The notes under the pieces were generated by a model that was not told the DNA's origin, made no database searches, and saw only the letters and a list, made by a program, of their open reading frames with translations. A stretch of DNA of 45,473 bases, taken from positions 1-45,473 of the forward strand of contig JANPJS010000258.1 in NCBI GenBank assembly GCA_031425655.1, in the 5' to 3' direction. Positions 2,544 to 18,441 of this stretch are shown here, in pieces. The translations under genes were made by a program, and so were the position numbers. Source of the DNA: Abditibacteriaceae bacterium. Lineage in GTDB: Bacteria; Armatimonadota; Abditibacteriia; Abditibacteriales; Abditibacteriaceae. Position 1 is the first letter of the stretch; each line of letters begins with the position of its first letter.

Positions 2544-4895
2544 TTAAATGAGGCGGCGTATGACTTCCAATAAATTGCTTTGCTCGAAGTTGCTTTTTAC
2601 TAAATAAGCATTGGCGCCCACATCAATGCCGCGTTCACGATCTTCGCGCGAATCGCGTCCCGTGACCAAAACAACGGGCAAATCGGCTAACTTTTTATCG
2701 CCGCGAATCGCTGCCGTCAGGTCGAAACCGTTCATGCGCGGCATATCAATGTCCGAAACCACAGCGTCGAAAAGCGTAGTCTTCAGCGTGGTCAGCGCTT
2801 CCAAACCGTCCACAGCAGTCGTCACCTGATAACCGGACGATTCGAGGATATTCTTCAAGAGCATCCGCGACGTGATGGAATCTTCCGCGATGAGAATGGT
2901 TTTTGCCGGCGCCGCTTCGCCTTGCGCGGTCGCGGAAACCGTGGTGCGGCCTGCTTTAACCGCCGATTTCATCAAATCGGCAGCGTTGAGAATCGGCACG
3001 GCTTTGCCCGATCCGAGAACCGTGGCGCCCGCCACATTGCGCACGCGCGATAACGGATCGCCCAAACTTTTCACCAGCACTTCCTGCTCGTTCAAAATCG
3101 CCTCTACCACAAAAGCGATGCGTTTTTCCCGCGTGCCCAACACCACGACTTGAAGAAAAGCGGATTCTTCTTTGGCTTTGGCGGGCAGTTCCAAAACGTC
3201 TTCGAGCCACACCAGCGATACCAAGTCCTGTCCCGCATCGGCGCGGTTTAAAGCGATGGTTTCGCGGTTTTCGACGGTTTGCACGTCGCCGGGCTGAATG
3301 CGCACCACGCGCTCGACATCGGCGGTCGGAATCACGAAAATCTGCCCCGCCGCCTGTGTCAGGATGCCTTTGAAGGTGGCCAAAGTCAGCGGGAGCGAGA
3401 TGCGAAACGTCGTGCCCGTTCCCGGTCGGGTTTCCAATTCAATACTGCCGCCGAGCTTTTCGACTTTTTCGCGCACGATGGCCATACCCAAGCCGCGTCC
3501 TGAAATTTCCGTGATGATCGGGCTGGTCGAAACGCCCGAATGGAAAATCAGCGCGAGGGTTTGTGCCTCATCAAGCAGCGCCGCCTCGGATTCGGAGAGA
3601 GCGCCTTTACGCACGGCGGCGGCGCGAATTTTTTCCGAGTCCATGCCCGCGCCGTCGTCGGAAATCAAGACTTCCACTTCGTTGCCGCCGACGCGCGACA
3701 CGACGATGCTGACCGTCGCACGGTGCGCTTTGCCCAGTCGCACGCGCTCGTCGGGCGCTTCGATGCCGTGGTCAACGCTGTTGCGCAAAAGATGAATCAG
3801 CGGGTCTTTGATTTCTTCCAGAATGCGCTTGTCAATCTCGACTTCGCTGCCGCGCATCATCAATTGCACGTCTTTGCCCTGATCGTGCGACAGGTCGCGC
3901 ACCAATTTCGGAAAGATGCCCAAAAGCGTGGCAAAGGGCATCATCAACAGCTTTTTGGTGTCTTCGAGCAGGTTATTGACGAGGGCCGACGTGGCGCGCT
4001 GATCGTGTTCCGCCGATCTGGAAAGCGCCGTCAATTTGCTTTCCAGAGATTTGACGTAAGTCTGATTCCAATCGAGAAATTCCAGCAGGCGCGCCACGGG
4101 CACCAAAGTTGGCGGCGCGCCATCGGCGTTGTTTTTATCTAAAGCGCGCCTTGCGCGGCGCAGTTGCGGCGAGATTTTGTCCCACTCTTTTTTCCAGAGT
4201 TCGAGGCTGGATTCGGCTTCGCGCAAATCGTCGGCGCGCTGGCTGGCCGTGAGTTTCACAACGAGCATTTCTTCGGCCTGTAAGAGCAGCGCGTCGAGCT
4301 TTCGCGTGGAAATACGCACCGTTTCCGAAAGCGTGGCCTTTTCCGCGACGGGCGATGCGACGGGCGCAACGGGCGGCGATGCGACGGCGGCGGGTTCTTC
4401 AGCGATGGCCGAAATCGGCGCCAGTGCAATTTCCGGCGGCGCTTCAATTGGCGCCGGAGCAGGTTCAGGCGGCGCGGTCACTGGTTCGCTTTTGCCTTCT
4501 TTTATCGCGCCCAAACGTTGAACCAGCGGCGTAATCTGTGCGGAGGCAGTGCCGTTTTCGGGTGCGGCGAGCAGCTTTTCGATCACATCAAGCGATTGAT
4601 AAAGCGTGTCGAATTGCGCGGCGGCGGGCTGCAATTCGCCGTATTTCCACGCCGAAAAGACGTTTTCCAGTGCCTGACAAACGGTTTCAACAGCGACCAT
4701 GTTGACCGCGCGCGAGGCACCTTTGAGGCTGTGCGCTTCGCGGCAAATCGTCTCGATGAGCGGCGCGTGAGATGTCGAGGCCGGGTCTTTCTCCACTTCC
4801 AGCAGCCCGCCGGACATGGCGTCAAGATGCTCGCCGGCTTCGATAGTGAAAGCCGCGCGCAGTTCTTCGAGAAAGTCGTCGTCTGATTGGCTCAT
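2544..4895 (-). CDS. cheA: Hybrid CheA histidine kinase (Hpt-HATPase-CheW-REC), WspE-like
   Basis: Hpt REAHSLKG; HLLRNSVDHGIE, DDGAG and SGRGLGM boxes; CheW domain; C-terminal REC (SDIDMP). Confidence 0.96.
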   Translation of the reverse strand: MSQSDDDFLEELRAAFTIEAGEHLDAMSGGLLEVEKDPASTSHAPLIETICREAHSLKGASRAVNMVAVETVCQALENVFSAWKYGELQPAAAQFDTLYQSLDVIEKLLAAPENGTASAQITPLVQRLGAIKEGKSEPVTAPPEPAPAPIEAPPEIALAPISAIAEEPAAVASPPVAPVASPVAEKATLSETVRISTRKLDALLLQAEEMLVVKLTASQRADDLREAESSLELWKKEWDKISPQLRRARRALDKNNADGAPPTLVPVARLLEFLDWNQTYVKSLESKLTALSRSAEHDQRATSALVNNLLEDTKKLLMMPFATLLGIFPKLVRDLSHDQGKDVQLMMRGSEVEIDKRILEEIKDPLIHLLRNSVDHGIEAPDERVRLGKAHRATVSIVVSRVGGNEVEVLISDDGAGMDSEKIRAAAVRKGALSESEAALLDEAQTLALIFHSGVSTSPIITEISGRGLGMAIVREKVEKLGGSIELETRPGTGTTFRISLPLTLATFKGILTQAAGQIFVIPTADVERVVRIQPGDVQTVENRETIALNRADAGQDLVSLVWLEDVLELPAKAKEESAFLQVVVLGTREKRIAFVVEAILNEQEVLVKSLGDPLSRVRNVAGATVLGSGKAVPILNAADLMKSAVKAGRTTVSATAQGEAAPAKTILIAEDSITSRMLLKNILESSGYQVTTAVDGLEALTTLKTTLFDAVVSDIDMPRMNGFDLTAAIRGDKKLADLPVVLVTGRDSREDRERGIDVGANAYLVKSNFEQSNLLEVIRRLI

Positions 4896-4900
4896 CGCGG

Positions 4901-5010
4901 AACCCCGATTAAAATCGGGGGCTACCTTTGCAAAGTCCGCCTTCGCGGACTAAATTCCGAGTCCGAAAAAGCGAAATTCGTAATCATAAACCCTGATTTC
5001 AATCGGGGCA
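4901..5010. repeat. REP-like palindrome cluster inside the che operon
   Basis: accccgattaaaatcgggg, agtccgccttcgcggact and accctgatttcaatcgggg; related units occur at 21874, 24001, 41125 and 45406. Confidence 0.8.
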
Positions 5011-5013
5011 AAA

Positions 5014-6651
5014 TCACACCTTAAATTGCTCGACTTGCTCTTTGAGGCGCTGCCCCAGTTCGGTCAGGCTACGCGCGGCTTCTTCCAATTGGCGGGCGCC
5101 TTCCACGTTTTGCGTGCTGGCCTGCTTGATGCTTTCCATCGCCTGCGCCACTTGATCCATGCCGACTAATTGCTGCTGGCTCGATGCCGCGATTTGGCTG
5201 GCCGCCTGCGCCGCGTCGTCCACGCTTTCCGATAAGGCCAAAATCGCTTCGCCGGCTTGCTCGGCTTGTGTCACGCCAATTTCGACGGCTTTACTGCCCT
5301 GCTCCGTCGCCAAAACCGCCGCGCTGGTGGCCTTTTGGATTTCGGTGAGAATAGCGCGCACTTGCATCGTGGCCTGTTTCGATTGATCGGACAGACTTTT
5401 CACTTCCTGCGCCACGACCGCGAAACCTTTGCCCTGATCGCCGGCTTTGGCCGCTTCGATGGCCGCGTTGACCGCCAACAGATTCGACTGCTGCGCCAAA
5501 TCGTCCACCGAGGCGATGATTTGCCCGATGGCCTGACTTTGCTCGGCCAAGCGCACCATGCCTTCGGCGATGGCTTCCATTTGCTCGCGGATGCGCTGCA
5601 TTCCCGCGCCGGTTTCTTCGGTGGATTTGCGCCCGCTTTGCGCCACATTGACCGCGTGCTGCGCGGTTTCGGCGACTTGGCGCGCTTTCTGGCTGGCCAA
5701 CTGCGAGGTTTGGCGGATTTCTTCGACGGTCGTGGTCGTTTCGGCAACGGCGGTCGCGGTTTGAGTCGAACTGGCGGCAAGTTCGGTGGTCGAAGCCGAT
5801 ATTTCGCTGGACGAGGTCGTCAACACGTTGACGCCTTCGGTGATATTGCGATTGACCTGTTGCAGGTTCGCCACCATTTTGCTGAACGAGCGGGCCAGTT
5901 TCCCCACTTCATCGCGCCGCGCGTCGGCGGCGACTTGGACGGTCAAATCGCCGTTAGCGATGCGCTCGGCGGCGCCGGCCATTGCTTTCAGCGGTCGGGC
6001 GATGATGAGGCCCATAATGATGGTCATCAGAGTGCCCAAAAGCAATGCGACGGCACCGGCTGTCATGAATTGCTGAATGGCCCTGTGCCCGTTCTCTTCG
6101 GCGTTACGAATGGAATTTTTCGCGTTACTATCGGCTTGAGCGGCCAGATTTTCGGCGATATTGCTCATATCCTCGACACGCTGCGCTTGAATACCTAAAA
6201 GCAAGGCTCTGGCCTGCGGCATTTTACCTGCGTAGATTAATGGAATGATTTGCAGCTCGCGCGTTTTCTTATGCGTGTCCTGAATCGTGCGCAACTGCGC
6301 CAACGGCCCCGCGAAATTCTGATCCACCTTGTTGCGGTCGAGAAGACTATCGGTGACCTTTTCCTGCAAAGCGGTCTTCGCTTTCAGGTTGCTGTCCCAC
6401 TTTTGCTGCTCGGCCCGCGTGGTGGCCGACAGCATCGCCAGCACTCCGGCGCGCAAAGCGACGTGTTGCTGGCGCAACTCCCATAAGTCGGTGACGTTGG
6501 CGAACTCCATCTGGTAAAGCCGCTTTTGCGAGGCTTGCATCGTGTTGATGCGAACGTAAGCCAGAGCAATGACGGACGCTAAAAACGCCATCATCACGAT
6601 GAAGCCGAGCGCCAGTTTGGTCGCCGTCGAAAAATTCAAGAACCACTTCAT
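5014..6651 (-). CDS. Methyl-accepting chemotaxis protein (2 TM, four-helix sensor, HAMP), WspA-like
   Basis: Two hydrophobic segments, HAMP (RRDEVGKLA), signalling tip QSNLLAVNAAIEAAKAGDQGKGFAVVAQEV. Start taken at ATG 6651 (MKWFLN) after GGAGCAGG; the longer ORF overlaps cheW. Confidence 0.93.
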   Translation of the reverse strand: MKWFLNFSTATKLALGFIVMMAFLASVIALAYVRINTMQASQKRLYQMEFANVTDLWELRQQHVALRAGVLAMLSATTRAEQQKWDSNLKAKTALQEKVTDSLLDRNKVDQNFAGPLAQLRTIQDTHKKTRELQIIPLIYAGKMPQARALLLGIQAQRVEDMSNIAENLAAQADSNAKNSIRNAEENGHRAIQQFMTAGAVALLLGTLMTIIMGLIIARPLKAMAGAAERIANGDLTVQVAADARRDEVGKLARSFSKMVANLQQVNRNITEGVNVLTTSSSEISASTTELAASSTQTATAVAETTTTVEEIRQTSQLASQKARQVAETAQHAVNVAQSGRKSTEETGAGMQRIREQMEAIAEGMVRLAEQSQAIGQIIASVDDLAQQSNLLAVNAAIEAAKAGDQGKGFAVVAQEVKSLSDQSKQATMQVRAILTEIQKATSAAVLATEQGSKAVEIGVTQAEQAGEAILALSESVDDAAQAASQIAASSQQQLVGMDQVAQAMESIKQASTQNVEGARQLEEAARSLTELGQRLKEQVEQFKV

Positions 6652-9433: not shown

Positions 9434-9669
9434 ACTCAGCCTTACGCGGTGCCGCCGTTTTTAAACGGGAAGGCGGGAAGAACGGGAAGGCGGGAAGAGA
9501 TTTGAGTGCTTTAGGCGGACGGGAAGCGATTTGGAGGCTTGGCTAACGAGCGGTGTGCTATCAGGACAGTGTTCAGGCCGTTTTTTCACGTTGTCAACCC
9601 TAAAAGATTTCCCGTCTTCCCGTTCTTTCCGTCTTCCCGTTAAAAACCACGGCACCGCATAAGGTGAGT
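9434..9669. mobile_element. Composite MITE-like element (ACTCACCTTACGCGGTG-type ends) carrying a tandem 9-mer hairpin
   Basis: Left actcagccttacgcggtgccgccgtttttaa is the near reverse complement of right ttaaaaaccacggcaccgcataaggtgagt; inner arms (cgggaagN)n and (Ncttcccg)n. Confidence 0.7.
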
Positions 9670-9685
9670 CAATCAGGAGAATAAC

Positions 9686-10516
9686 GTGAAAATTGCTGTT
9701 CAATTAGGCTTGCTGCCGGGAAATACCAATCTCGAAAAAGCGAAATGGGCGCGGGATCACGGCGTCGAGGGCATCGAATTGGGTGTTTGGGGCGGCGGAT
9801 TGCCTAAAATGCGCCGCGACGCCGAAGAAATCAACGGTTTGGTGCCGATTTCCAGCGTTTGCGGCAACGCCGACGCCGAAGGCAACACCAGTTTCGAGTT
9901 TCTCAGCCCCGATCCGAAAAAGCGCCGCGCCAGCATTGACGGAGCCAAAGCGATTCTTGAGTTTTGCGGCGAAGTCGGCGCCGCCGGACAAATCGTGCCG
10001 CCGATTTTCGGCGCGCCGCAAGTGCCGGATTTATCGCCCTTCAAAACGCCTTTGGAAATCGAAGAAGAACTGATAATCGCCGCCTGCCGCGAAATCGGCC
10101 CGCACGCGCAATCGCACAAAACGCTGTTTCTTTTGGAGCCGCTCAATCGCTACGAACAGCATTATTTACGCAAGCAAAGCGACGGCGTGCGCGTGATAAA
10201 AGCCTCCGGCGCGCCCGGCATCAAGGTGCTGGCCGACCTGTTTCATATGCACATCGAAGAAACCGACAGCCCGGCAGCCTTGCGCGCGGCAGGCAAACAC
10301 GTCGGACATTTGCATTTGGCCGACAACACGCGCATGGAACCGGGCACCGGCGACATTGACTTCGTGGCGGCCTTCAAAGCGTTGAAAGACATTGGCTTTA
10401 CGGGTTTCATGGCTTACGAATGCGGCATTTCAGGCGACACGCTGCGCAAAAAAGCCGCGAACCTGTCGAAGAGCCTCGACTTCGTGCGTAACGCGATTGA
10501 AAAGGCGAGCATCTGA
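9686..10516 (+). CDS. Sugar-phosphate isomerase/epimerase (xylose-isomerase-like TIM barrel, tagatose/psicose 3-epimerase-like)
   Basis: EPLNRYE, DLFHMHIEE, HLHLADNTR, PGTGDIDF and AYE motifs; AGGAG RBS before GTG. Confidence 0.9.
   Translation: MKIAVQLGLLPGNTNLEKAKWARDHGVEGIELGVWGGGLPKMRRDAEEINGLVPISSVCGNADAEGNTSFEFLSPDPKKRRASIDGAKAILEFCGEVGAAGQIVPPIFGAPQVPDLSPFKTPLEIEEELIIAACREIGPHAQSHKTLFLLEPLNRYEQHYLRKQSDGVRVIKASGAPGIKVLADLFHMHIEETDSPAALRAAGKHVGHLHLADNTRMEPGTGDIDFVAAFKALKDIGFTGFMAYECGISGDTLRKKAANLSKSLDFVRNAIEKASI
10391..10516 (+). repeat. Left copy of a ~120 bp direct repeat (3' end of the isomerase gene)
   Basis: Matches 16165-16284; the first 20 bp ggctttacgggtttcatggc are identical. 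Confidence 0.9.
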
Positions 10517-10563: not shown

Positions 10564-13185
10564 GTGGGCAAATTGAAGTTTGGCTATGAAACCATTATCT
10601 GGGGTCGAGAAATTGACGACCTTGATACTGTGCTTGACATTATCGCGGGCGCTGGATATCAGGGTGTGGAATTCTCTCAGTGGCCGGGACGCTTGCCGCC
10701 CATACAAGACCTGCTCAAGATGCTGGAAGATCGCCAATTGGCGTTGATCGGTTTTTCAGGCGGCACCTTGTATGAGCGCATAAAGTATTGCGGCAATTAT
10801 CGCCCCGAACATCTGATCGTCTTTGATTGGAGTGAACTCGCTGAGAAAGCCACAGCAGACGGGTTCAAATTTGCGTTGCACCCACATCTCCATAAACCAA
10901 AGCACCGGATTGAGGAAGTTTTTGATTTGCTCAAAAAGCACGACAAGCTTCTCTTTCTGCCGGATACTGCTCTGCTAACTATCGCAGGTGACGACCCGGT
11001 TGAGGCGATTCAGAGGGCATTCCAATTGGGTAAAGGAAGGCTGGTTGGTGTCCACTTGAAAGATTGGTCGCCGGAATATGGGCATGCCGCGCACCGCTAT
11101 GCCTACGGCTTCACGGAACTCGGCACCGGCATCATTGAGTTGGAAGCCGTGCTTCGTGAGTTGCAGCAGTCTCATTTCACCGGTTGGATGATTGTGGAGC
11201 AAGACAACACGCGCAAAGATATTCCAACTTCTGTTTCCGAATCTGCACAGTGGCTTGCTAATAAGGGTTTTTCCGTTGTGCCTCGCAAAGCGTCAGCCCT
11301 TTCGTCCCCCAAACCCCGAATCCCCGCGAAGCGGCCAACCACCTTTTCCGCAGATGACGAAGCACGCTTTTTAAAGGCCATATCGCGTGCCAGCACTATG
11401 GAACTGAACGCCTGTTACGACCAAATTGCTGCATCTTTCAGCGAACTCGTGCCTGACAGCCTCGTGATGGTAATGATGTGTAATCCGATAAACAATGTTG
11501 TCAGCCTACTTTCTTTGGCAAACGGGATTTCCACTCAATATGATGAATACTCCCACGCACAACGGACTGCCAACCTGCTCACTGACGGGCACTATGCCGC
11601 AGCATTGGGAAAACTCACTCTGGAATTCGAGAAAACCTTGAGTGGTGTTGCCGTCGAACGGCAAACTACGACATCATTTGACCTGACCACACCTCATCCC
11701 GGCGCAGAATATGGATATCCTTCTGCAAACTTGGGTTATTCAAAGTTGTGCGAGCAGTTAGGCCTGACCCGCATGGTGGGAATTCCAGTGTTGGGTATTT
11801 CCAATCCACGCCACGCGCGCTTAATCGTTAATATTTTTTCCCCGGCCAATGATCGCTTGGCTCATCAGGATGAGCTTGAATATCTCTTCTATCTGAGCCA
11901 ATATGCGGGTATTGCAGCCGATTCGGCTCTGGATGAGATATGTTCTTTTGCTGCCGCCAGTGTCAACATCTTAGCCGGGCCTAGCACGACCACGAATGGG
12001 TTTTTGGAAAAAATCCGAGACCTGATCTTGGAACTCGTGGAATGTGAGGCCATTTCCATCTTTTTGATAAACGACATAGACACCAAACTTGAATTGGCCA
12101 CTTCAACAACGAATGCTGACTGGCGTGTGCCTGAGAATGAGCAATTCTATGCAAAGGGCGAGGGGCTGACGGGCCAGGTTTGGGACCGCAGAGAAGCACT
12201 GCTTACGACTGATACGAATCAAGAGCCGGGGCATTCGGGTAAGAGTGCGGAACGCGTCATAACTGAGCGGAAGGCTTGCCTGATGGCGCCGTTAGTCAAC
12301 TCCAGAAACGAGGTCGTCGGAGTCGTGCGCTGCATGAATAAACATGAGTCTCGCCCGCAAGACCTCAGGATGTTCACCAACGATGACGTAGCAATTTTGG
12401 AAGCGATTGGCCAAGCCGCCGTTCCTCACCTGCAAATCCTCCTGAGCGAGGAGTGGCGTGCCCGCGCTCTGGGTAGGATGATTCATGAATTTAAAACGCC
12501 ATTGGTTGCCATTCGCGGCGCCGCTGACTTGATGGATGCTGAATTCGAGAAGCGGCGCACTTCCGCCGTCGAATTTTTCGATCACGACTACCTGGAAGAC
12601 ATCTGGGCTTGGAGCGATATTATGCGCCGGTTGCTTGGTAATGCTGACGTTTTTCGTTATCCATCGCTGGAGATCCCGCTTCAGCCACAACCCACGTTGT
12701 TATTGAAACACGTTGTTGCGCCGGCGGTTAACCAAGTGCAGATTTTACTGCGCAATCGTGGTTTCTCTCAGAACAGCATTCGCTATGGAAGCTTCACAGT
12801 GATCCCCGATTTGTGGATTGACCGAAGCCAATTTCAGCAGGTGATTTTCAACCTGTTGTCTAATGCAATTAAGTATTGTTATCATGATGCCAAATCCTTT
12901 CAGGTGGCAATTGTGGGAGAGATAGAGGCCGGAGATTTCGTAGTGCGATTTCGAGATTGGGGGCCGGGAATCAGTCGAGAAATGCGTGAAGCCATTTTTC
13001 GGGAGGGCATCCGAGATACAAACGCCATAAAGGACAACGTCGCGGGACAGGGACTTGGCCTTTGGGTGGTGCGGAAGATTGTGGAGGCTCATGGCGGTGA
13101 AGTGCTCGTGACGAAGTTGCGTCAGCCGACGGAAATTTCCATTTACTTGCCTCACTCGCTGGCCTCCCGTCCACCTCGCTCGTGA
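10564..13185 (+). CDS. Soluble sensor histidine kinase: TIM barrel (IolE/AP_endonuc_2-like), GAF-like, GAF, HisKA, HATPase
   Basis: N-terminal GYQGVE, LHPH, PDTAL, VHLKD, ELGTG, GWMIVEQD; GAF with GEGLTGQV, CLMAPL, VVGVVRCMNK, FTNDD; H-box HEFKTPL, NLLSNAIKY, DWGPGI, GQGLGL; no clear TM segment. Confidence 0.9.
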   Translation: MGKLKFGYETIIWGREIDDLDTVLDIIAGAGYQGVEFSQWPGRLPPIQDLLKMLEDRQLALIGFSGGTLYERIKYCGNYRPEHLIVFDWSELAEKATADGFKFALHPHLHKPKHRIEEVFDLLKKHDKLLFLPDTALLTIAGDDPVEAIQRAFQLGKGRLVGVHLKDWSPEYGHAAHRYAYGFTELGTGIIELEAVLRELQQSHFTGWMIVEQDNTRKDIPTSVSESAQWLANKGFSVVPRKASALSSPKPRIPAKRPTTFSADDEARFLKAISRASTMELNACYDQIAASFSELVPDSLVMVMMCNPINNVVSLLSLANGISTQYDEYSHAQRTANLLTDGHYAAALGKLTLEFEKTLSGVAVERQTTTSFDLTTPHPGAEYGYPSANLGYSKLCEQLGLTRMVGIPVLGISNPRHARLIVNIFSPANDRLAHQDELEYLFYLSQYAGIAADSALDEICSFAAASVNILAGPSTTTNGFLEKIRDLILELVECEAISIFLINDIDTKLELATSTTNADWRVPENEQFYAKGEGLTGQVWDRREALLTTDTNQEPGHSGKSAERVITERKACLMAPLVNSRNEVVGVVRCMNKHESRPQDLRMFTNDDVAILEAIGQAAVPHLQILLSEEWRARALGRMIHEFKTPLVAIRGAADLMDAEFEKRRTSAVEFFDHDYLEDIWAWSDIMRRLLGNADVFRYPSLEIPLQPQPTLLLKHVVAPAVNQVQILLRNRGFSQNSIRYGSFTVIPDLWIDRSQFQQVIFNLLSNAIKYCYHDAKSFQVAIVGEIEAGDFVVRFRDWGPGISREMREAIFREGIRDTNAIKDNVAGQGLGLWVVRKIVEAHGGEVLVTKLRQPTEISIYLPHSLASRPPRS

Positions 13186-13221
13186 CGCCGGGCAAAAACC
13201 ACAGCATTAAGGAGAGAGCCA

Positions 13222-13668
13222 ATGGATACAAAGGAACCAGTGCAACGCCTTGTCTTACTGGTAGATGATGAGACGATGCCATCTGATCTTTACGTGCGAG
13301 CGTTAGAGCGAGTCGGATTCAAAGTTGAGCAGCGATTCGATCCTGATGAAGCGCTCGCCTTCGTGGAAAAGGAAGGACAGAATATCAAGGCTATCATCCT
13401 CGATGTGATGATGCCTCCGGGTAGCTATGGCAACAAGCGCACTGAGGACGGTTTGACGACTGGAGTTCTGCTTTACGCCGACCTGCAACAGCGATGCCCA
13501 TATGTGCCAATTTTTGTGACGACCAATACGGCAAACCACGCAACTCTTCAGCAATTTCCGCAGGGGCCACTGCTCCGTATTATTCAAAAGATAGATTATC
13601 CGCCTCGCGCTTTGATTAAACTCGTCCAAGAAATGATTGACAAGGAAGATGCTAACGATGTCGAATGA
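13222..13668 (+). CDS. Single-domain response regulator (receiver only)
   Basis: LLVDDE, phosphoacceptor ILDVMMP, VTT, QK; no output domain; AAGGAG RBS. Confidence 0.9.
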   Translation: MDTKEPVQRLVLLVDDETMPSDLYVRALERVGFKVEQRFDPDEALAFVEKEGQNIKAIILDVMMPPGSYGNKRTEDGLTTGVLLYADLQQRCPYVPIFVTTNTANHATLQQFPQGPLLRIIQKIDYPPRALIKLVQEMIDKEDANDVE

Positions 13669-15637
13669 TTTTGGAACTTCAAAACATGAACCGCAATTGT
13701 CAGGCGAAGATCGCTTCTGGCAGATGGTCAACGAACCACAATTGCTGTTGGATATGAAAGGCTTGGAAAATGCGTTAGGTGAACTTCAAGAACAGCTTGA
13801 TGAAAGTCAAGTGGAATTGCTTGAAGAAATTGGCGGACATTTATGGCGACAGGTCATCATGGGTCTTCGTCAGAGAATTAGTTTGGTTGAGGCCGCGAAC
13901 GCTACGGATGATGAAACGAGAAATTTTAAGGTCGGGCAACTCGCCGACACACTTAAGAACGAATACCCAGTATGGTTAATTCGTGTCGCCGCCAGCACCA
14001 CTACCCCGCCCAATGTCGCGGAGGCGGCGAGGGAGGTGTTGCACGAGTTCGGCTTAACCGCCGAAGAGTTGGCAGAGGAAGCAGAGGGCGAGGCGGTGCT
14101 GGCAGGCGTGGGAGAACCGTCGTCGCCCATCCTTGTGGTGGAAGAGCAACCACAGGAATACATCGTCAGCGTGCCGAGAGGATTACAACTGGCTGCGGCG
14201 GGAGAGGCGCGCCATTCTCTGCGTGACGTGCAACTGCGGAAAGACATTCACATCCTCCGCTCGGCAGGTGAAGACGGCAATCTGGCGCTAATGACGGCGC
14301 GGGAGGCCGCACACCTCAAAGCCACCATGCCGGATTTGTTGGTGGAACCCAACGTGCTCTACAAGCTGATCGGGCATCCGCTGCTCGATAATTTCAAGTC
14401 ATTCGATGCACCGTCCGTATGGGGGCGCAAAACGGTCACTGTGCGTGTAGTGGATATCAACAATAATCAACGGCCCGTTCCCGACGTAACTGTTTATTTG
14501 ATCGTTGATCCCGTCAAGCGTTCGGGTTACAAAGGCATAACGAATAAACAAGGGGAATGCCGCCTGAGCATCCACGCCAGCATTCACGCCGCGCACAAGC
14601 TATGCGACCTTCTACTGCTGCCGAAAGCGGGTTATTGGAATCGCTCACTCAATCAAATTGCAATCACTGATGAGTTCGAGACGTTTGTTCGTCCGCTGTT
14701 TGATGCGCCCGGAGGGGCTTACGATTGGGGGCACCAGTGCTGCGGGGGGCGGGGCGGATTATCCGACGGCGCCGAGATCAAAATCGGCATCATTGATTCG
14801 GGCGTGTGCCGTGACCATCCTTGGCTGGCTCCGGCCAAGGGGCACAGTTTTGTTGATGGCCCGAAAAAATATCCGTGGCATGAGGACGATCTGGGGCATG
14901 GCACGCACGTTGCGGGCGTCATCGCGGCTCGTCTTGCCAGCGCGGGCGGTTCAGGATGTGTAGGATACGTGCCGCAGGCGCAGATTCATTCTTATCGCGT
15001 AGCCAAGGATAAGAATGAAGTATCCCTACTGGACATTAGCGATGCGATTGACCGTGCCGTGACGGACGGCTGCGACCTCATCAATCTGAGCCTTGGCGAC
15101 AATGAGTATTCGGATTATCTACACGGCAGCATTGAGGCGGCTACGGAAAATGGCGTGCTGTGCATCGCCGCCACCGGCAACGATGGTGGCCCAGTGCTCT
15201 ATCCGGCGGCTTATTCCCGTGTCGTGGGGATTAGCGCGTTCGGCAAGTATCGTAGTTATCCAGACGATTCGCTGCATTGCGCCAATGAGCCTCACCAAGG
15301 CAATCGTCCAACTGCGCAGCGTCCCGACGGCGAGTATTACGTGGCGAAATTCTCCAACTTCGGCGATGAGGTAAATTTTTGTGCTCCCGGCGTGGCGATT
15401 ACGTCCACTGTGCCGGTTGACGGTTTCAGTGCTTGGGACGGCACCAGCATGGCTTGTCCGCAAGTCACTGGGATTGCTGCTCTGGCTTTAGCCTTGAATC
15501 CAAGCATTTTTCTTGCTCCACGGAATCCAAGGCGTGTGACACAGCTCAAGCAGGTTCTGGGAAGAACCGCGCAGCCGTTGGGCTTTGGCGCGTCTTACGA
15601 GGGAGCAGGTTGTTTAGATGTGGGACGGCTTCCATAG
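13658..15637 (+). CDS. S8 subtilisin-like serine peptidase with N-terminal helical region, propeptide and beta-sandwich insert
   Basis: Triad IGIIDSG, HGTHVAG, GTSMACP; LINLSLG; AATGND. Start taken at ATG 13658, overlapping the receiver gene; no signal peptide. Confidence 0.92.
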   Translation: MSNDFGTSKHEPQLSGEDRFWQMVNEPQLLLDMKGLENALGELQEQLDESQVELLEEIGGHLWRQVIMGLRQRISLVEAANATDDETRNFKVGQLADTLKNEYPVWLIRVAASTTTPPNVAEAAREVLHEFGLTAEELAEEAEGEAVLAGVGEPSSPILVVEEQPQEYIVSVPRGLQLAAAGEARHSLRDVQLRKDIHILRSAGEDGNLALMTAREAAHLKATMPDLLVEPNVLYKLIGHPLLDNFKSFDAPSVWGRKTVTVRVVDINNNQRPVPDVTVYLIVDPVKRSGYKGITNKQGECRLSIHASIHAAHKLCDLLLLPKAGYWNRSLNQIAITDEFETFVRPLFDAPGGAYDWGHQCCGGRGGLSDGAEIKIGIIDSGVCRDHPWLAPAKGHSFVDGPKKYPWHEDDLGHGTHVAGVIAARLASAGGSGCVGYVPQAQIHSYRVAKDKNEVSLLDISDAIDRAVTDGCDLINLSLGDNEYSDYLHGSIEAATENGVLCIAATGNDGGPVLYPAAYSRVVGISAFGKYRSYPDDSLHCANEPHQGNRPTAQRPDGEYYVAKFSNFGDEVNFCAPGVAITSTVPVDGFSAWDGTSMACPQVTGIAALALALNPSIFLAPRNPRRVTQLKQVLGRTAQPLGFGASYEGAGCLDVGRLP

Positions 15638-15740
15638 ATGCCATAAAGAAGGCCGGGCTGTTCCGAAAGGCCTTACTATGGTAAAAGTAGAATCGTAGGT
15701 GCGAAGGGAAGCGCACCCTCGCTCGAAGTAAGGTGTTACA

Positions 15741-15980
15741 ATGTCAATTCTGACCCGTATGTTCAAACGCCATCCTGCCCAGCAATATATTGTCTGGCGG
15801 AAGTCGGGTAACGTGTCCGTGAGGGGCGAACTCTCGCATTACTCAGGGGTTCGCATTCTCAATGAGGCCAATCCACGCCGAGCGCTGGTCGAAATGTCTG
15901 ACGACGTGCGAGATCGGATTGCCCACGAACATCCTGAATTGTCTATTGAGCCGAACGCCCTCTATAAATTGCAGACGTGA
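15741..15980 (+). CDS. Small protein resembling the subtilase propeptide (I9-like inhibitor)
   Basis: Ungapped 41-residue alignment to the upstream protease pro-region (14 identities, ending IEPNALYKL vs VEPNVLYKL) plus a shared YIV strand; TAAGGTG RBS. Confidence 0.75.
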   Translation: MSILTRMFKRHPAQQYIVWRKSGNVSVRGELSHYSGVRILNEANPRRALVEMSDDVRDRIAHEHPELSIEPNALYKLQT

Positions 15981-16017: not shown

Positions 16018-16073
16018 GATGTAAAAAGCCAGAACGTGCCTCAAAATCAAGGCACGTTCTGGCTTTTTACATC
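16018..16073. terminator. Long perfect hairpin, probable intrinsic terminator of the islet operon
   Basis: gatgtaaaaagccagaacgtgcct-caaaatca-aggcacgttctggctttttacatc. Confidence 0.75.
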
Positions 16074-16164: not shown

Positions 16165-16284
16165 ATCGGCTTTACGGGTTTCATGGCCTACGAATGCGGC
16201 ATTTCCGGCGACACACCACGCAAAAAAGCCGCAAACCTCGCCAAAAGCCTCGACTTCGTGCGCGCCGCGATTTCGAAAGCGTAA
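16165..16284 (+). pseudogene. Displaced 3' fragment of the isomerase gene (right direct repeat)
   Basis: Translates IGFTGFMAYECGISGDTPRKKAANLAKSLDFVRAAISKA*, against IGFTGFMAYECGISGDTLRKKAANLSKSLDFVRNAIEKASI* in the intact gene. Confidence 0.88.
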
Positions 16285-16288
16285 ATTG

Positions 16289-16354
16289 AACCGCCAAGAC
16301 GCCAAGAACGCCAAGAACTTAATTGCTCTTGGCGTTCTTGGCGTCTTGGCGGTT
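16289..16354. repeat. Hairpin repeat built from tandem cgccaaga units
   Basis: aaccgccaagacgccaagaacgccaaga ... tcttggcgttcttggcgtcttggcggtt perfect inverted pair. Confidence 0.85.
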
Positions 16355-16359
16355 AATAT

Positions 16360-18441
16360 TTAGCTTTTCACTTTAGCGACCAAAAGCTTCGTGTTGCTTT
16401 CACCGACGTGCACGATGATGAGACGGCCCCGGCGCGCGACTTCGACAGTCTGACCTTCGATTTTGTCTTCGAGCGCGGCTTGGCCTTGCGCGATTTGCGT
16501 CAGTGCGCCGCCGGCTGCGCCGCGCGATAAAGTGCCTTTGAGCGTGGTCGCTTCGGCTTTGAGCATGAGCGTCACGGCGTTGCGCTTCGGGTCGCCGAAG
16601 ACGAGATTCAATTTCTGATCGGCGGCCAAAGCCGGCATTTTGAAACGCACCGTGCCATCGCCCCAGAACGGGCCTTTGTGCCACATGGTTTTGCTGGTGG
16701 TGTCGGTGGTGCCTACGAACTGCACACCCGGATCGGCCAGCGGCGGCAGCGGCATCCAAGCGCCTTCAGGTGTGCTCCAACCGCCCATTGTTAACGGCTG
16801 CGGGCCGGTGGAATACAAATCGGGGACGCTGGCCCACGTCGGGCGAGGATGCGGGAATTCGACGGCGAACGCGGTGATTTTCGGTGCAGTTTTGCTTTTG
16901 GCATCGCCTTGCGCGAAAAAGCCGGGGCGGCCGCTGTCAATGTCGTCGTCGAAGGCGTCCAGCAGGCGCACGCCGTCGGCTTTGGCGCTCAGATAGCCAC
17001 GGTCGCAGGCAAATTCCCACTGCGTGGTTTTGCCGTCGAAACGGGCGCCGGTGCGCGCTTCATCCAACACTTCGGTTTTGACGCCCATGGTTTTCACCAA
17101 TTGCACCCGTCCGGCATAAGGCGAGGCCGATTTCGAGCCGGCCACGCGCAGCAGATACGTTCCTTTGCCGGCTTGATGGTGCAAAACCACACCGGCAGCG
17201 GCGCTTTCGGGCAGTTCGATGTCGGCGGCGGCGATGTAATTTTCCCAATCGGCTTCGCCCGTGACTGCAAAAGCGCCCTGCGCGCCTTGCGATGTCATGT
17301 AACCAGCTTGAAGATTAGATGCCAGAGCGCCCGTTACCGTCCGCCAGCGGCCTGGAACTGTCACGCGAAAATCGTCGGCGATGTCGTTGATCGAACGCAC
17401 AGTCACGTCGTCGAAGACCGCTGAGGCCTCGATGCTGGGGTTTTCGGTATAAAGCCCGACTTGGCCGCGTCCGAAGAGGCCGGTGCGCGAACGCAAGACT
17501 TCAGTGTCGTCAATTGCGGCGCGCATCCAGCCGTTGGACGCCGAAAGGCGAATGCGATACCACTGATTCTGGTCGTAAGCGACAGGCGCTTCGGCGAGGA
17601 TGCGCGGCTGTCCGTCTATCATGCCGCGCAGTTGCACCGGGCCTTCCTCGCTCCAATGCAATAGCAAATAATTCTTGTCGTCCTGCACATAAACCGCGAT
17701 GCCGATAGCCGTGGCGCCTTCGGGTTTGACCGAAACCTCTACGGCGTAATCGTCCCAGAAAGCCTTGCCCGCCACCGCCAGATTAAGGCCTTTGGCGCCG
17801 GCTTTGAAGACGAACGGGTTGGCACTCTGCGCGACTTGCGCGGCGGCGTTTTCGGCCAGCCCGCTGGTGCTCCAACTGCCGATTAAATTGCTCCATACGG
17901 TTTCTTCGATCTTGACCGAGGCGATAGGAATGCCTTTGCGCGGATCGGCCTGGGTATCGGCCACAACGACATCGTTGGCCACGCGCATGAAGTCGTCGTC
18001 TAAAGTCACATCGCCGCTGGGCTGCATTTTCGGCGTGTTGGCGGCGCCGCGAAAGCCGATTTTGCCTTCTTTCCAGGTTTCGTCGTCGGCCTCGAAAAGC
18101 ACGCGTTTTTCGGCGATGATGCGCCAGCGTGCCCCGCGCCTTTGAATCACAACCGCGCCCGGCGCGATGGCTTTGCCATACGAGGCGAGGCGCGTGGCGA
18201 TTTTGCCTTTGGATAGGCCAAGTTCGATGCCGGCAGGCGTGAATTTCAAGCGATAACCGTCGCCGTTTTCCTGCTCGCACAGCGACCAGTCAACGGGCAA
18301 GCTGGCCAGTTTCGCGGTCACGTCGAAACCGCCTTCTTCGGCGGGGTCTTCGAGATAAGTAAAGCCGGGCAGTGCGGCGTGTGCGGCGTTCGACAGGGCA
18401 AGACAGGGCAGTAAGATCGCCCCAAGAAGTAGCTTTTTCAT
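16360..18441 (-). CDS. Secreted hypothetical protein with repeated ConA/LamG (DUF1080-like) beta-sandwich domains
   Basis: Signal peptide MKKLLLGAILLPCLALSNAAHA; repeated WDDY/WENY strands, GQVGLY, FDDVTV, GRPGFF. Confidence 0.75.
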   Translation of the reverse strand: MKKLLLGAILLPCLALSNAAHAALPGFTYLEDPAEEGGFDVTAKLASLPVDWSLCEQENGDGYRLKFTPAGIELGLSKGKIATRLASYGKAIAPGAVVIQRRGARWRIIAEKRVLFEADDETWKEGKIGFRGAANTPKMQPSGDVTLDDDFMRVANDVVVADTQADPRKGIPIASVKIEETVWSNLIGSWSTSGLAENAAAQVAQSANPFVFKAGAKGLNLAVAGKAFWDDYAVEVSVKPEGATAIGIAVYVQDDKNYLLLHWSEEGPVQLRGMIDGQPRILAEAPVAYDQNQWYRIRLSASNGWMRAAIDDTEVLRSRTGLFGRGQVGLYTENPSIEASAVFDDVTVRSINDIADDFRVTVPGRWRTVTGALASNLQAGYMTSQGAQGAFAVTGEADWENYIAAADIELPESAAAGVVLHHQAGKGTYLLRVAGSKSASPYAGRVQLVKTMGVKTEVLDEARTGARFDGKTTQWEFACDRGYLSAKADGVRLLDAFDDDIDSGRPGFFAQGDAKSKTAPKITAFAVEFPHPRPTWASVPDLYSTGPQPLTMGGWSTPEGAWMPLPPLADPGVQFVGTTDTTSKTMWHKGPFWGDGTVRFKMPALAADQKLNLVFGDPKRNAVTLMLKAEATTLKGTLSRGAAGGALTQIAQGQAALEDKIEGQTVEVARRGRLIIVHVGESNTKLLVAKVKS

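Follow-up and report, generated by a model that had tools for sequence, protein, structure and literature searches.

Four co-oriented genes at positions 10564-15980 of contig JANPJS010000258.1, from an Abditibacteriaceae bacterium (assembly GCA_031425655.1, 5.98 Mb in 327 contigs), encode a histidine kinase, a receiver, an S8 protease of the subtilase type and a protein of 79 amino acids (aa), and raise the question of whether they form one signalling system or two. The entire 45,473-nt contig was analysed and is called the window below. An initial annotation had read the four genes as a single system in which the kinase, through the receiver, would control proteolysis. We conclude that the segment is probably a composite of two two-gene modules, a kinase-receiver pair and a protease-small protein pair, each conserved independently of the other, which arrived here as one block.

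The distribution of the two pairs carries this conclusion. When all four proteins were compared by tblastn with the loci of their relatives, the TIM-barrel/GAF kinase or the receiver was found in none of nine protease-family loci (one unrelated HATPase-only match lies 5 kb off in locus L019), and the protease or the small open reading frame (ORF) in none of eight kinase-family loci. A profile of the small ORF matched a single genome out of 401 of the phylum, the window's own. So far, this contig is the only place where the four genes have been seen in this order. The proposal that all four genes constitute one system is not supported by these counts; synteny holds within the pairs (small ORF in 8/8 and receiver in 6/6 readable loci) and breaks down across them.

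A scan of species-representative genomes gave at least 525 confirmed S8 relatives, and among the best 80 of these loci seven cover the N-terminal blocks of the window protease. These are from Roseateles (L013), Acidimicrobiales (L014), Hyphomonadaceae (L015), Parafilimonas (L016), Chitinophaga (L017, cut by a contig end), Verrucomicrobiota (L018) and Methylobacteriaceae (L019). A metagenome scan added the two closest relative loci, L119 (43% identity) and L120 (48%). The small-ORF profile was run on six-frame translations of 120 loci, and a small ORF was found directly downstream of the protease in every readable family locus (L013-L016, L018, L019, L119 and L120), as it is in the window. The same profile matched none of the 73 other S8 loci of the scan, none of the kinase loci and none of the best 80 viral S8 loci, all of which match the catalytic domain only. 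In the literature searched, which lacked most subscription journals, no description was found of a bacterial protease paired with a dedicated I9-like inhibitor. In one protease relative, P0056, the C-terminal part of the protease continues into small-protein sequence (MAKFIVRYVGTGS...), probably because of a frameshift or because two adjacent genes were wrongly called as one, which would then be further evidence of their adjacency. The window has a 103-nt spacer between protease and small ORF (15638-15740) with a short GC hairpin (GTGCGAAGGGAAGCGCAC), unlike L016 and L018, in which the genes overlap or are separated by 5 nt, and expression or processing of the inhibitor may differ between the window and these loci.

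The sensor region of the kinase was searched in 400 other genomes of the window's phylum, and homologues with the full architecture were present in eight of them, with none in the 26 genomes of the window's own family. A receiver of 135-175 aa directly follows the kinase in all six readable loci of the phylum, loci L108 and L109 stopping at contig edges and not being among the six. The window receiver is 44% identical over 127 residues to the receivers behind the kinase homologues in L105-L107, and by sequence the receivers that follow the kinase homologues are clearly orthologous. The gene 3' of the receiver varies: three genomes of a single genus have an NMO-like gene there, L111 has an APH-like kinase and L112 a BPD_transp_2 permease, and nothing co-oriented follows in L110. 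In L112 (G052:C1, 6565-12350) the kinase and receiver lie between a double ABC_tran ATPase and the permease; this position inside an operon for a sugar-type ATP-binding cassette (ABC) transporter hints at the ligand that the kinase senses. In L105 (3113-4702) and L106 (11829-13418), two genomes of one genus, a 529-aa receiver-GAF-GAF protein is encoded divergently from the kinase homologue and could be a further relay partner.

The small protein had been described as a copy of the pro-region of the protease, and the likeness is borne out: 22 of 72 residues (31%) are identical to protease residues 173-244 (expectation value, E, 4e-5). It is 41% identical to the small ORF of L120 and 36% to that of L119. 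Searched against 1.84 billion cluster representatives, its profile matched 705 at E<=1e-3 and 72 at E<=1e-10, and the 150 listed members are mostly 66-94 aa long (range 57-143). No Pfam match was found for the 79-aa protein at E<=0.01, and none to Inhibitor_I9 (PF05922) for any of 104 aligned family members at E<=0.1; the same 104 gave no credible match to any Pfam family, 12 families being matched by one member each (best E 0.0064). The best match of the family profile among solved chains had an E of 0.38. A lead came from the Atlas, where a cluster at rank 30 (score 0.87) has Inhibitor_I9 in 16% of its members.

The AlphaFold2 (AF2) model of the small protein (predicted local distance difference test, pLDDT, 84.1; predicted template modelling score, pTM, 0.70) has the beta-alpha-beta-beta-alpha-beta topology of I9 propeptides. 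In a VIA-align search of 48,161 representative chains, ranks 1-8 went without exception to subtilase pro-domains and the free I9 inhibitor POIA1: 3bgo_P (Z 7.5), 3whi_B (7.3), 1v5i_B (6.8), 8c4x_B (6.5), 4yn3_B (6.2), 9ues_A (6.2), 3t41_A (5.9) and 3afg_B (5.8). Root-mean-square deviations were 2.1-3.3 over 61-72 aligned residues; Z values below 8, as all of these (7.5-5.8) are, can reflect a common arrangement, and what counts here is that the top ranks are all of one kind. Foldseek of the model against the PDB gave no match at E<=0.001, with prosubtilisin 3cnq_P at rank 5 (TM 0.60/0.66). The modelled fold supports the small ORF as a free-standing I9-type pro-domain-like protein.

The predicted complex of protease residues 250-666 with the small protein scored 0.88, against 0.00 for the best of three controls; of solved complexes, 116 of 157 reach this mark, and of mismatched pairs, 2 of 215, counts that are a rough guide here because custom alignments were used. 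At least 95% of contacts were shared between runs, and partner pLDDT was at least 81. The interface consists of small-protein residues 15-19, 41-49 and 68-79. Tail residues 70-79 contact D387, H421, N515 and S604 of the protease, with L77 against D387 and H421. The small protein is thus predicted to plug the active site of the protease with its C-terminal tail in the cleft, and the suggestion that it is a separate, propeptide-like inhibitor gains support from both models. The tail reads EPNALYKLQT in the window, which shares with L119 and L120 a first type (...HPEL.IEPN.LY...) that copies the junction of the cis domain, EPN(V/I)LYK. A second type, in L013-L019 (...W...PE.....PD.R.K), does not copy that junction, and the two types suggest either two sub-families or different engagement of the cleft.

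The protease itself is a subtilase. Pfam Peptidase_S8 covers residues 378-649 at 150.6 bits (cut-off 21.8), and D387, H421 and S604, in Asp-His-Ser order, together with the oxyanion residue N515 are invariant or nearly so in a 56-sequence alignment; the intact triad of the initial annotation was thereby recovered. Subtilisin BPN' and intracellular serine proteases are the best solved relatives of the family profile. A protein-collection search returned about 60 relatives at roughly 30-45% identity, most of them about 500 aa long and starting directly at a conserved block (QF..LP..G ... LDS..E.G..LVEM ... PGLR..P...Y), followed by a beta-rich block and the S8 domain. All three parts are present in the window protein, which carries an additional helical extension of about 165 aa at its N terminus. 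In 40 relatives the protease query matched catalytic domains only, from query residue 349 onward. In the AF2 model made with the family alignment, the cis pro-domain module has a pLDDT of mostly 74-95, with one block at 57, and the beta domain that follows has a weak match to Big_1 (E 0.0025, under the cut-off).

The extension had no Pfam match at E<=10, found just itself among 5436 candidate proteins of 362-1154 aa and had no look-alike in the Atlas, and its assignment as a histidine phosphotransfer (Hpt) or other known domain was dropped. BLASTP found nothing like it among the third genes that follow kinase-receiver pairs (best E 1.7). The extension nevertheless stays open for some 165 codons ahead of the usual start of the family; 165 random codons would be free of stops with a probability of roughly (61/64)^165, or about 4e-4. 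The relatives L119/P0002 and P0004 have different extensions at the same place; a transmembrane anchor in those of L119 and P0002 is not claimed, the highest 19-residue hydropathy being 1.27-1.45 against the usual 1.6. No receiver domain was found among 120 listed relatives of the protease.

In the kinase, Pfam identified an AP_endonuc_2 TIM barrel (residues 87-233, 67.7 bits), GAF_2 (476-619, 39.9 bits) and HATPase_c (753-864, 65.9 bits against a cut-off of 26.4), which agrees with the soluble TIM-barrel/GAF histidine kinase first described. The HisKA match is weak (residues 634-663, 18.6 bits, under the cut-off of 26.9), and a middle region between barrel and GAF has no assignment. The putative phospho-accepting histidine, of a dimerization and phosphotransfer domain, is H641 (873-aa numbering); it lies in an H-box, HE(F/L/I), that 12 of the 13 sequences in the family alignment carry. 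The N and G boxes (LSNAIKY, DWGPGI, GQGLGLW) are conserved in the family alignment. The barrel carries the family-wide motifs HPH, PDTA(H/L)L, VHLKDW and VEQD, which resemble metal-ligand motifs by analogy with the AP_endonuc_2 family. The receiver, also as annotated, has Response_reg as its sole domain (33.9 bits against a cut-off of 30.2) and no output domain, and residues D15, D16, D61, T100/T101 and K123 are all present. Judged by sequence alone, both proteins retain their catalytic motifs. In the PADLOC scan the ATPase domain matched PDC-M43B and the receiver matched SduA. Only 8 proteins among 7,998 scored candidates, drawn from 5.8 billion sequences, share the TIM barrel and GAF with the kinase; they are 36-48% identical to it and two are truncated. 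The literature searched, with the same coverage of journals as above, gave no description of a kinase with a TIM-barrel input.

The ORF listing confirms four genes in one orientation, and the unit ends, as the initial annotation had noted, in a strong hairpin with 24-nt arms (16018-16041 and 16050-16073) that are 100% complementary and followed by TTTTT. The four ORFs stand as annotated; two of their start positions probably do not. The kinase more likely starts at TTG 10573 (870 aa) and the protease at ATG 13658 (659 aa); both agree with the gene calls of the protein collection, the former with a Shine-Dalgarno-like sequence and the latter with AAGGAAG 10 nt upstream. AAGGAG lies 6 nt ahead of the receiver ATG. 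With ATG 13658, the receiver stop (13666-13668) overlaps the protease start by 11 nt, in keeping with the overlap originally reported. The four proteins all lack a hydrophobic leader at the N terminus, their highest Kyte-Doolittle means over 19 residues (1.6-1.7) falling inside domains, and the Pfam scan of the segment proteins found no DNA-binding regulator.

The description of the segment as an acquired islet was supported by composition and by a bracketing repeat. Over whole genes, the G+C content at third codon positions (GC3) is 0.55, 0.50, 0.58 and 0.59 in the four genes and 0.64-0.71 in ten flanking genes, and the low-GC3 segment, of about 5.7 kb, is compositionally foreign. A 117-nt direct repeat with 85% identity flanks it. 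The left copy lies within an intact TIM-barrel gene upstream, which matches Pfam AP_endonuc_2 (123.5 bits) and an IolO-like NCBIfam model (109.7 bits, under the cut-off) and has orthologues of 78% and 69% identity in two same-family genomes (G005 and G006). The right copy reads IGFTGFMAYECGISGDT...KA to a stop codon, without a start and with another stop codon just upstream, and is marginally nearer to the two orthologues than the left copy is (local scores 42 vs 38 and 43 vs 42), which weakly suggests that the left end arrived with the cassette and displaced the native 3' end. Since the four genes all have low GC3 and lie inside one repeat pair, they were transferred together at least once. 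No integrase is encoded on the segment. An empty pre-insertion site was not found, the flanks of the G005 and G006 orthologues not being syntenic with the window, and in three same-genus genomes the TIM-barrel gene had no match at E<=1e-20. A recent duplication linking this gene with the TIM domain of the kinase was considered and rejected, the two being just 31% identical over 52 residues (E 0.002).

One sequencing run, possibly the source run, contains the stretch, and no RNA run is listed among the holders. In an independent assembly of that run, one 6,728-nt contig spans 9621-16348 with 0 differences and even depth over the flanks, so the arrangement is not an artefact of binning or joining; the Logan contigs held no alternative joint that skips the segment. 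Two dispersed palindromic elements lie nearby. The first, built from CCAAGACGCCAAGAACGCCAAGA, occupies 16276-16367, between the displaced gene end and a convergent gene, where the Logan contigs have a depth spike. It has 32 matches in the genome at up to 2 mismatches (0 for a reversed control), most of them in inverted pairs with a spacing of about 33 nt, and looks like a dispersed hairpin family of the repetitive extragenic palindromic (REP) kind. The second, a AACGGGAAGGCGGGAAG tandem with 38-nt inverted arms, lies at 9440-9664 in the intergenic region between the divergent P450 and TIM-barrel genes; this family has 23 genome matches (0 for the control), with depth spikes at 9440-9664. The features of the segment are collected in Table 1.

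Table 1. Features of the four-gene segment and its borders (positions in the window).
Feature	Position	Strand	Basis
Host xylose-isomerase-like TIM-barrel gene (IolO/psicose-epimerase-like)	9686..10516	+	Pfam AP_endonuc_2; 3' end is the left repeat copy
Left repeat copy, within the intact upstream TIM-barrel gene	10391..10507	+	
Soluble histidine kinase	10573..13185	+	Pfam; 870-aa gene call starting at 10573; conserved motifs in family alignment
Stand-alone receiver, 148 aa	13222..13668	+	Pfam Response_reg as sole match
Cytoplasmic S8A subtilase, 659 aa (666 aa from TTG 13637)	13658..15637	+	Pfam Peptidase_S8
Helical N-terminal extension, about 165 aa, upstream of the pro-domain	13658..14152	+	AF2 helices 23-149, block pLDDT about 50-79
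Cis pro-domain-like module, residues 173-244, ending EPNVLYKL	14153..14368	+	AF2 beta-alpha-beta-beta-alpha-beta; family alignments
All-beta middle domain, residues 264-351	14426..14689	+	Seven AF2 strands, block pLDDT 87-98
S8 catalytic domain, residues 378-649	14768..15583	+	Pfam envelope
79-aa free-standing I9-like protein, predicted active-site plug	15741..15980	+	Protease similarity, AF2, fold search, complex prediction
Perfect 24-bp hairpin and T-run, terminator of the four-gene unit	16018..16073	+	Repeat search and sequence
Right repeat copy, orphan displaced 3' end of the TIM-barrel gene	16165..16281	+	Repeat search and alignment

Taken as a composite, the segment would work as follows. 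The first module would be a two-component pair of the window's phylum, in which a soluble TIM-barrel and GAF kinase, probably reading a sugar- or inositol-like metabolite, is served by a receiver-only partner that would either work through contact with another protein or take up phosphate, as a relay or a sink. The second would be a mobile protease-inhibitor pair of several other phyla, whose enzyme is a cytoplasmic subtilase zymogen with its own I9-like pro-domain. Folding of the enzyme is probably the task of the cis pro-domain, with a probable cut at the ...EPNVLYKL junction, and the 79-aa paralogue is predicted to bind the mature enzyme, its ...ALYKLQT tail running through the catalytic cleft, as a stand-by inhibitor. 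Proteolysis would start once free inhibitor drops below enzyme, in the manner of a toxin-antitoxin pair. The two modules would have been fused into one operon in this genome, where regulatory coupling is possible and is required by no evidence.

The small protein shares its fold with I9 propeptides and inhibitors (the BPN'/E propeptides 3bgo_P and 3whi_B; POIA1, 1v5i_B), and the complex prediction has it docked as they are, against the catalytic domain and with its C-terminal tail reaching into the substrate cleft. Like POIA1 it is a separate polypeptide. It differs from them in having no Inhibitor_I9 sequence match and in the weak E of its best solved chain, and in being a cytoplasmic protein of bacteria whose gene directly follows that of its own target; the target keeps a cis pro-domain, giving two I9-like copies per protease. 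The family protease resembles the Bacillus intracellular subtilisin proteases (ISPs; 7y6m, 7xr8), signal-less S8A enzymes of the subtilisin type that are active inside the cell, and its profile counts ISP chains among its best matches of known structure. ISPs are reported to lack a full I9 pro-domain and to have a short N-terminal peptide instead, whereas the family of the window protease combines an I9-like domain in cis with a beta domain and a separate I9-like gene. A dedicated protein inhibitor is reported for Isp1 as well; this inhibitor, IPI, has an all-beta, immunoglobulin (Ig)-like fold (PMC3901451), in contrast to the I9 fold of the small protein.

Other systems resemble the segment in layout. 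Detocs consists of a kinase (DtcA), a receiver-only protein (DtcB) and a receiver-effector (DtcC) (10.1101/2023.01.24.525353), and the segment likewise unites a soluble kinase with a receiver-only protein and an effector enzyme in a single operon that lacks a DNA-binding output. The Detocs effector has its own receiver domain, whereas Peptidase_S8 is the only Pfam match of the window protease; Detocs is a conserved three-gene unit, and the two pairs of the window do not co-occur elsewhere. The PADLOC scan gave no row named Detocs or Dtc, its output not stating whether that release includes Detocs profiles. CpdR is a receiver-only adaptor of ClpXP whose phosphorylation state gates proteolysis by protein contact (PMC8973945). 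This resembles the design first proposed for the window, with the difference that the target of CpdR is an AAA+ protease and the one proposed for the window a subtilase; the window receiver matched NCBIfam CpdR only weakly (19.8 bits against a cut-off of 180). With IetAS, in which IetS is an S8 peptidase, the segment shares an S8 core in a mobile, non-secreted setting, and PADLOC matched IetS at E 4e-11. The IetS profiles, of 749-795 positions, match just about 110-135 residues of the window protease, within the S8 core at 382-516. No IetA ATPase partner is encoded on the segment, which has the I9-like partner gene instead, and the locus is not assigned to IetAS.

Several observations weigh against the composite. 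The joint transfer of the four genes, in their shared low GC3 and single repeat pair, is one, and the 11-nt overlap of receiver and protease suggests, as far as sequence goes, coupled translation. The protease extension, for which no relative was detected, is on the same side of the presumed cleavage site as the pro-domain, the expected place for a regulatory handle. The co-occurrence counts leave out the contexts of the closest kinase relatives (P0122-P0126, 41-48% identical) and of P0004, and a conserved four-gene locus may exist in lineages outside the sample. The complex score may reflect memory of solved propeptide-subtilisin and POIA1-subtilisin complexes, and may point to likeness rather than actual binding. 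The overlap, the joint transfer and the attachment of an extension without relatives to an inhibitory pro-domain are also what would be expected of an integrated four-gene system, in which the kinase, on sensing a metabolite, would phosphorylate the receiver, and the receiver would in turn bind the protease extension and control release of pro-domain or inhibitor, with proteolysis as the output. A receiver without an output domain, on a segment without a DNA-binding regulator, would fit such a system, for which CpdR with ClpXP (a receiver-only protein steering a protease) and Detocs (a two-component system with a non-transcriptional effector) provide precedents in the sources cited above. We nevertheless consider this system rather unlikely given the separation of the pairs in the nine and eight loci and the single small-ORF match among the phylum genomes. 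The two closest protease loci, L119 and L120 (43-48% identical), keep the small ORF and have no kinase or receiver in the DNA seen, L120 being cut just upstream; the same kinase-receiver pair adjoins unrelated third genes elsewhere, none of the listed protease relatives has a receiver domain, and the extension matches no known receiver-binding or Hpt family. In a narrower form, the mobile protease-inhibitor pair would have been captured by the kinase-receiver pair in this lineage. With the presumed cleavage site lying beyond the pro-domain, a partner that bound the extension would act on release of the inhibitory domain. The phosphorylated receiver would then dock on the helical extension and decide the release of the pro-domain, with free 79-aa inhibitor setting the threshold. 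We regard this as distinctly improbable; were it true, a two-component pathway would have subtilase zymogen activation as its direct output, and, more generally, the N-terminal extensions, which vary within the protease clade, would serve the pro-domain as input handles that can be exchanged.

Two further readings concern the protease-inhibitor pair. The small protein could be mainly a trans-acting folding chaperone or maturation factor rather than a standing inhibitor, as I9 pro-domains are intramolecular chaperones in subtilisin folding, and the fold and predicted binding site are the same for both roles. Every aligned family member already has a cis pro-domain, so that folding does not call for another copy, and POIA1 (1v5i) and other free-standing I9 homologues of known complex structure are inhibitors; the chaperone role is very improbable. 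The pair could also be an anti-phage or abortive-infection module, with the kinase-receiver pair as passenger or added sensor, which would be compatible with the mechanism proposed above. Its patchy distribution over several phyla would agree with this, as would the PADLOC profile named 'subtilase' (PDLC03014), which matches members of the protease family with E down to 1e-47, although the PADLOC output does not name the parent system of that profile. Neighbourhoods in two other loci are weak hints of a role in defence or cell death: L013 has a tyrosine integrase and a mad3/mad8-like protein (3779-5578 and 11526-13253), and L016 (9046-14772) a DpdE/ZorD-like SNF2 helicase (PADLOC 2e-143) and a GajB-like UvrD helicase. 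Against them stand the housekeeping neighbours of other loci, namely ClpB in L014, ribonucleotide reductase in L018 (with a CotH protein), YchF in L019 (with an AMP-binding enzyme) and Apt in L119 (with an acylphosphatase), and no family-type copy was present in the best 80 viral S8 loci. A bacterial gasdermin preprint mentions subtilases with fungal gasdermins only. A defence role appears unlikely on this evidence.

We conclude that the small protein is likely a dedicated inhibitor of a mobile cytoplasmic subtilase. If the composite is the correct reading, the 705 cluster representatives would make up a protein family without a Pfam entry, free-standing, I9-like and about 80 aa long, which in the eight readable loci is encoded behind one distinctive cytoplasmic subtilase. 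The pair appears to move between phyla and looks like a toxin-antitoxin pair acting at the protein level. The TIM-barrel/GAF kinase is a rare sensor architecture and could show how a sugar-isomerase fold came to be recruited as a signal input. The fused operon is the one place where the kinase-receiver and protease-inhibitor pairs meet, and it bears on whether a receiver may gate a subtilase.

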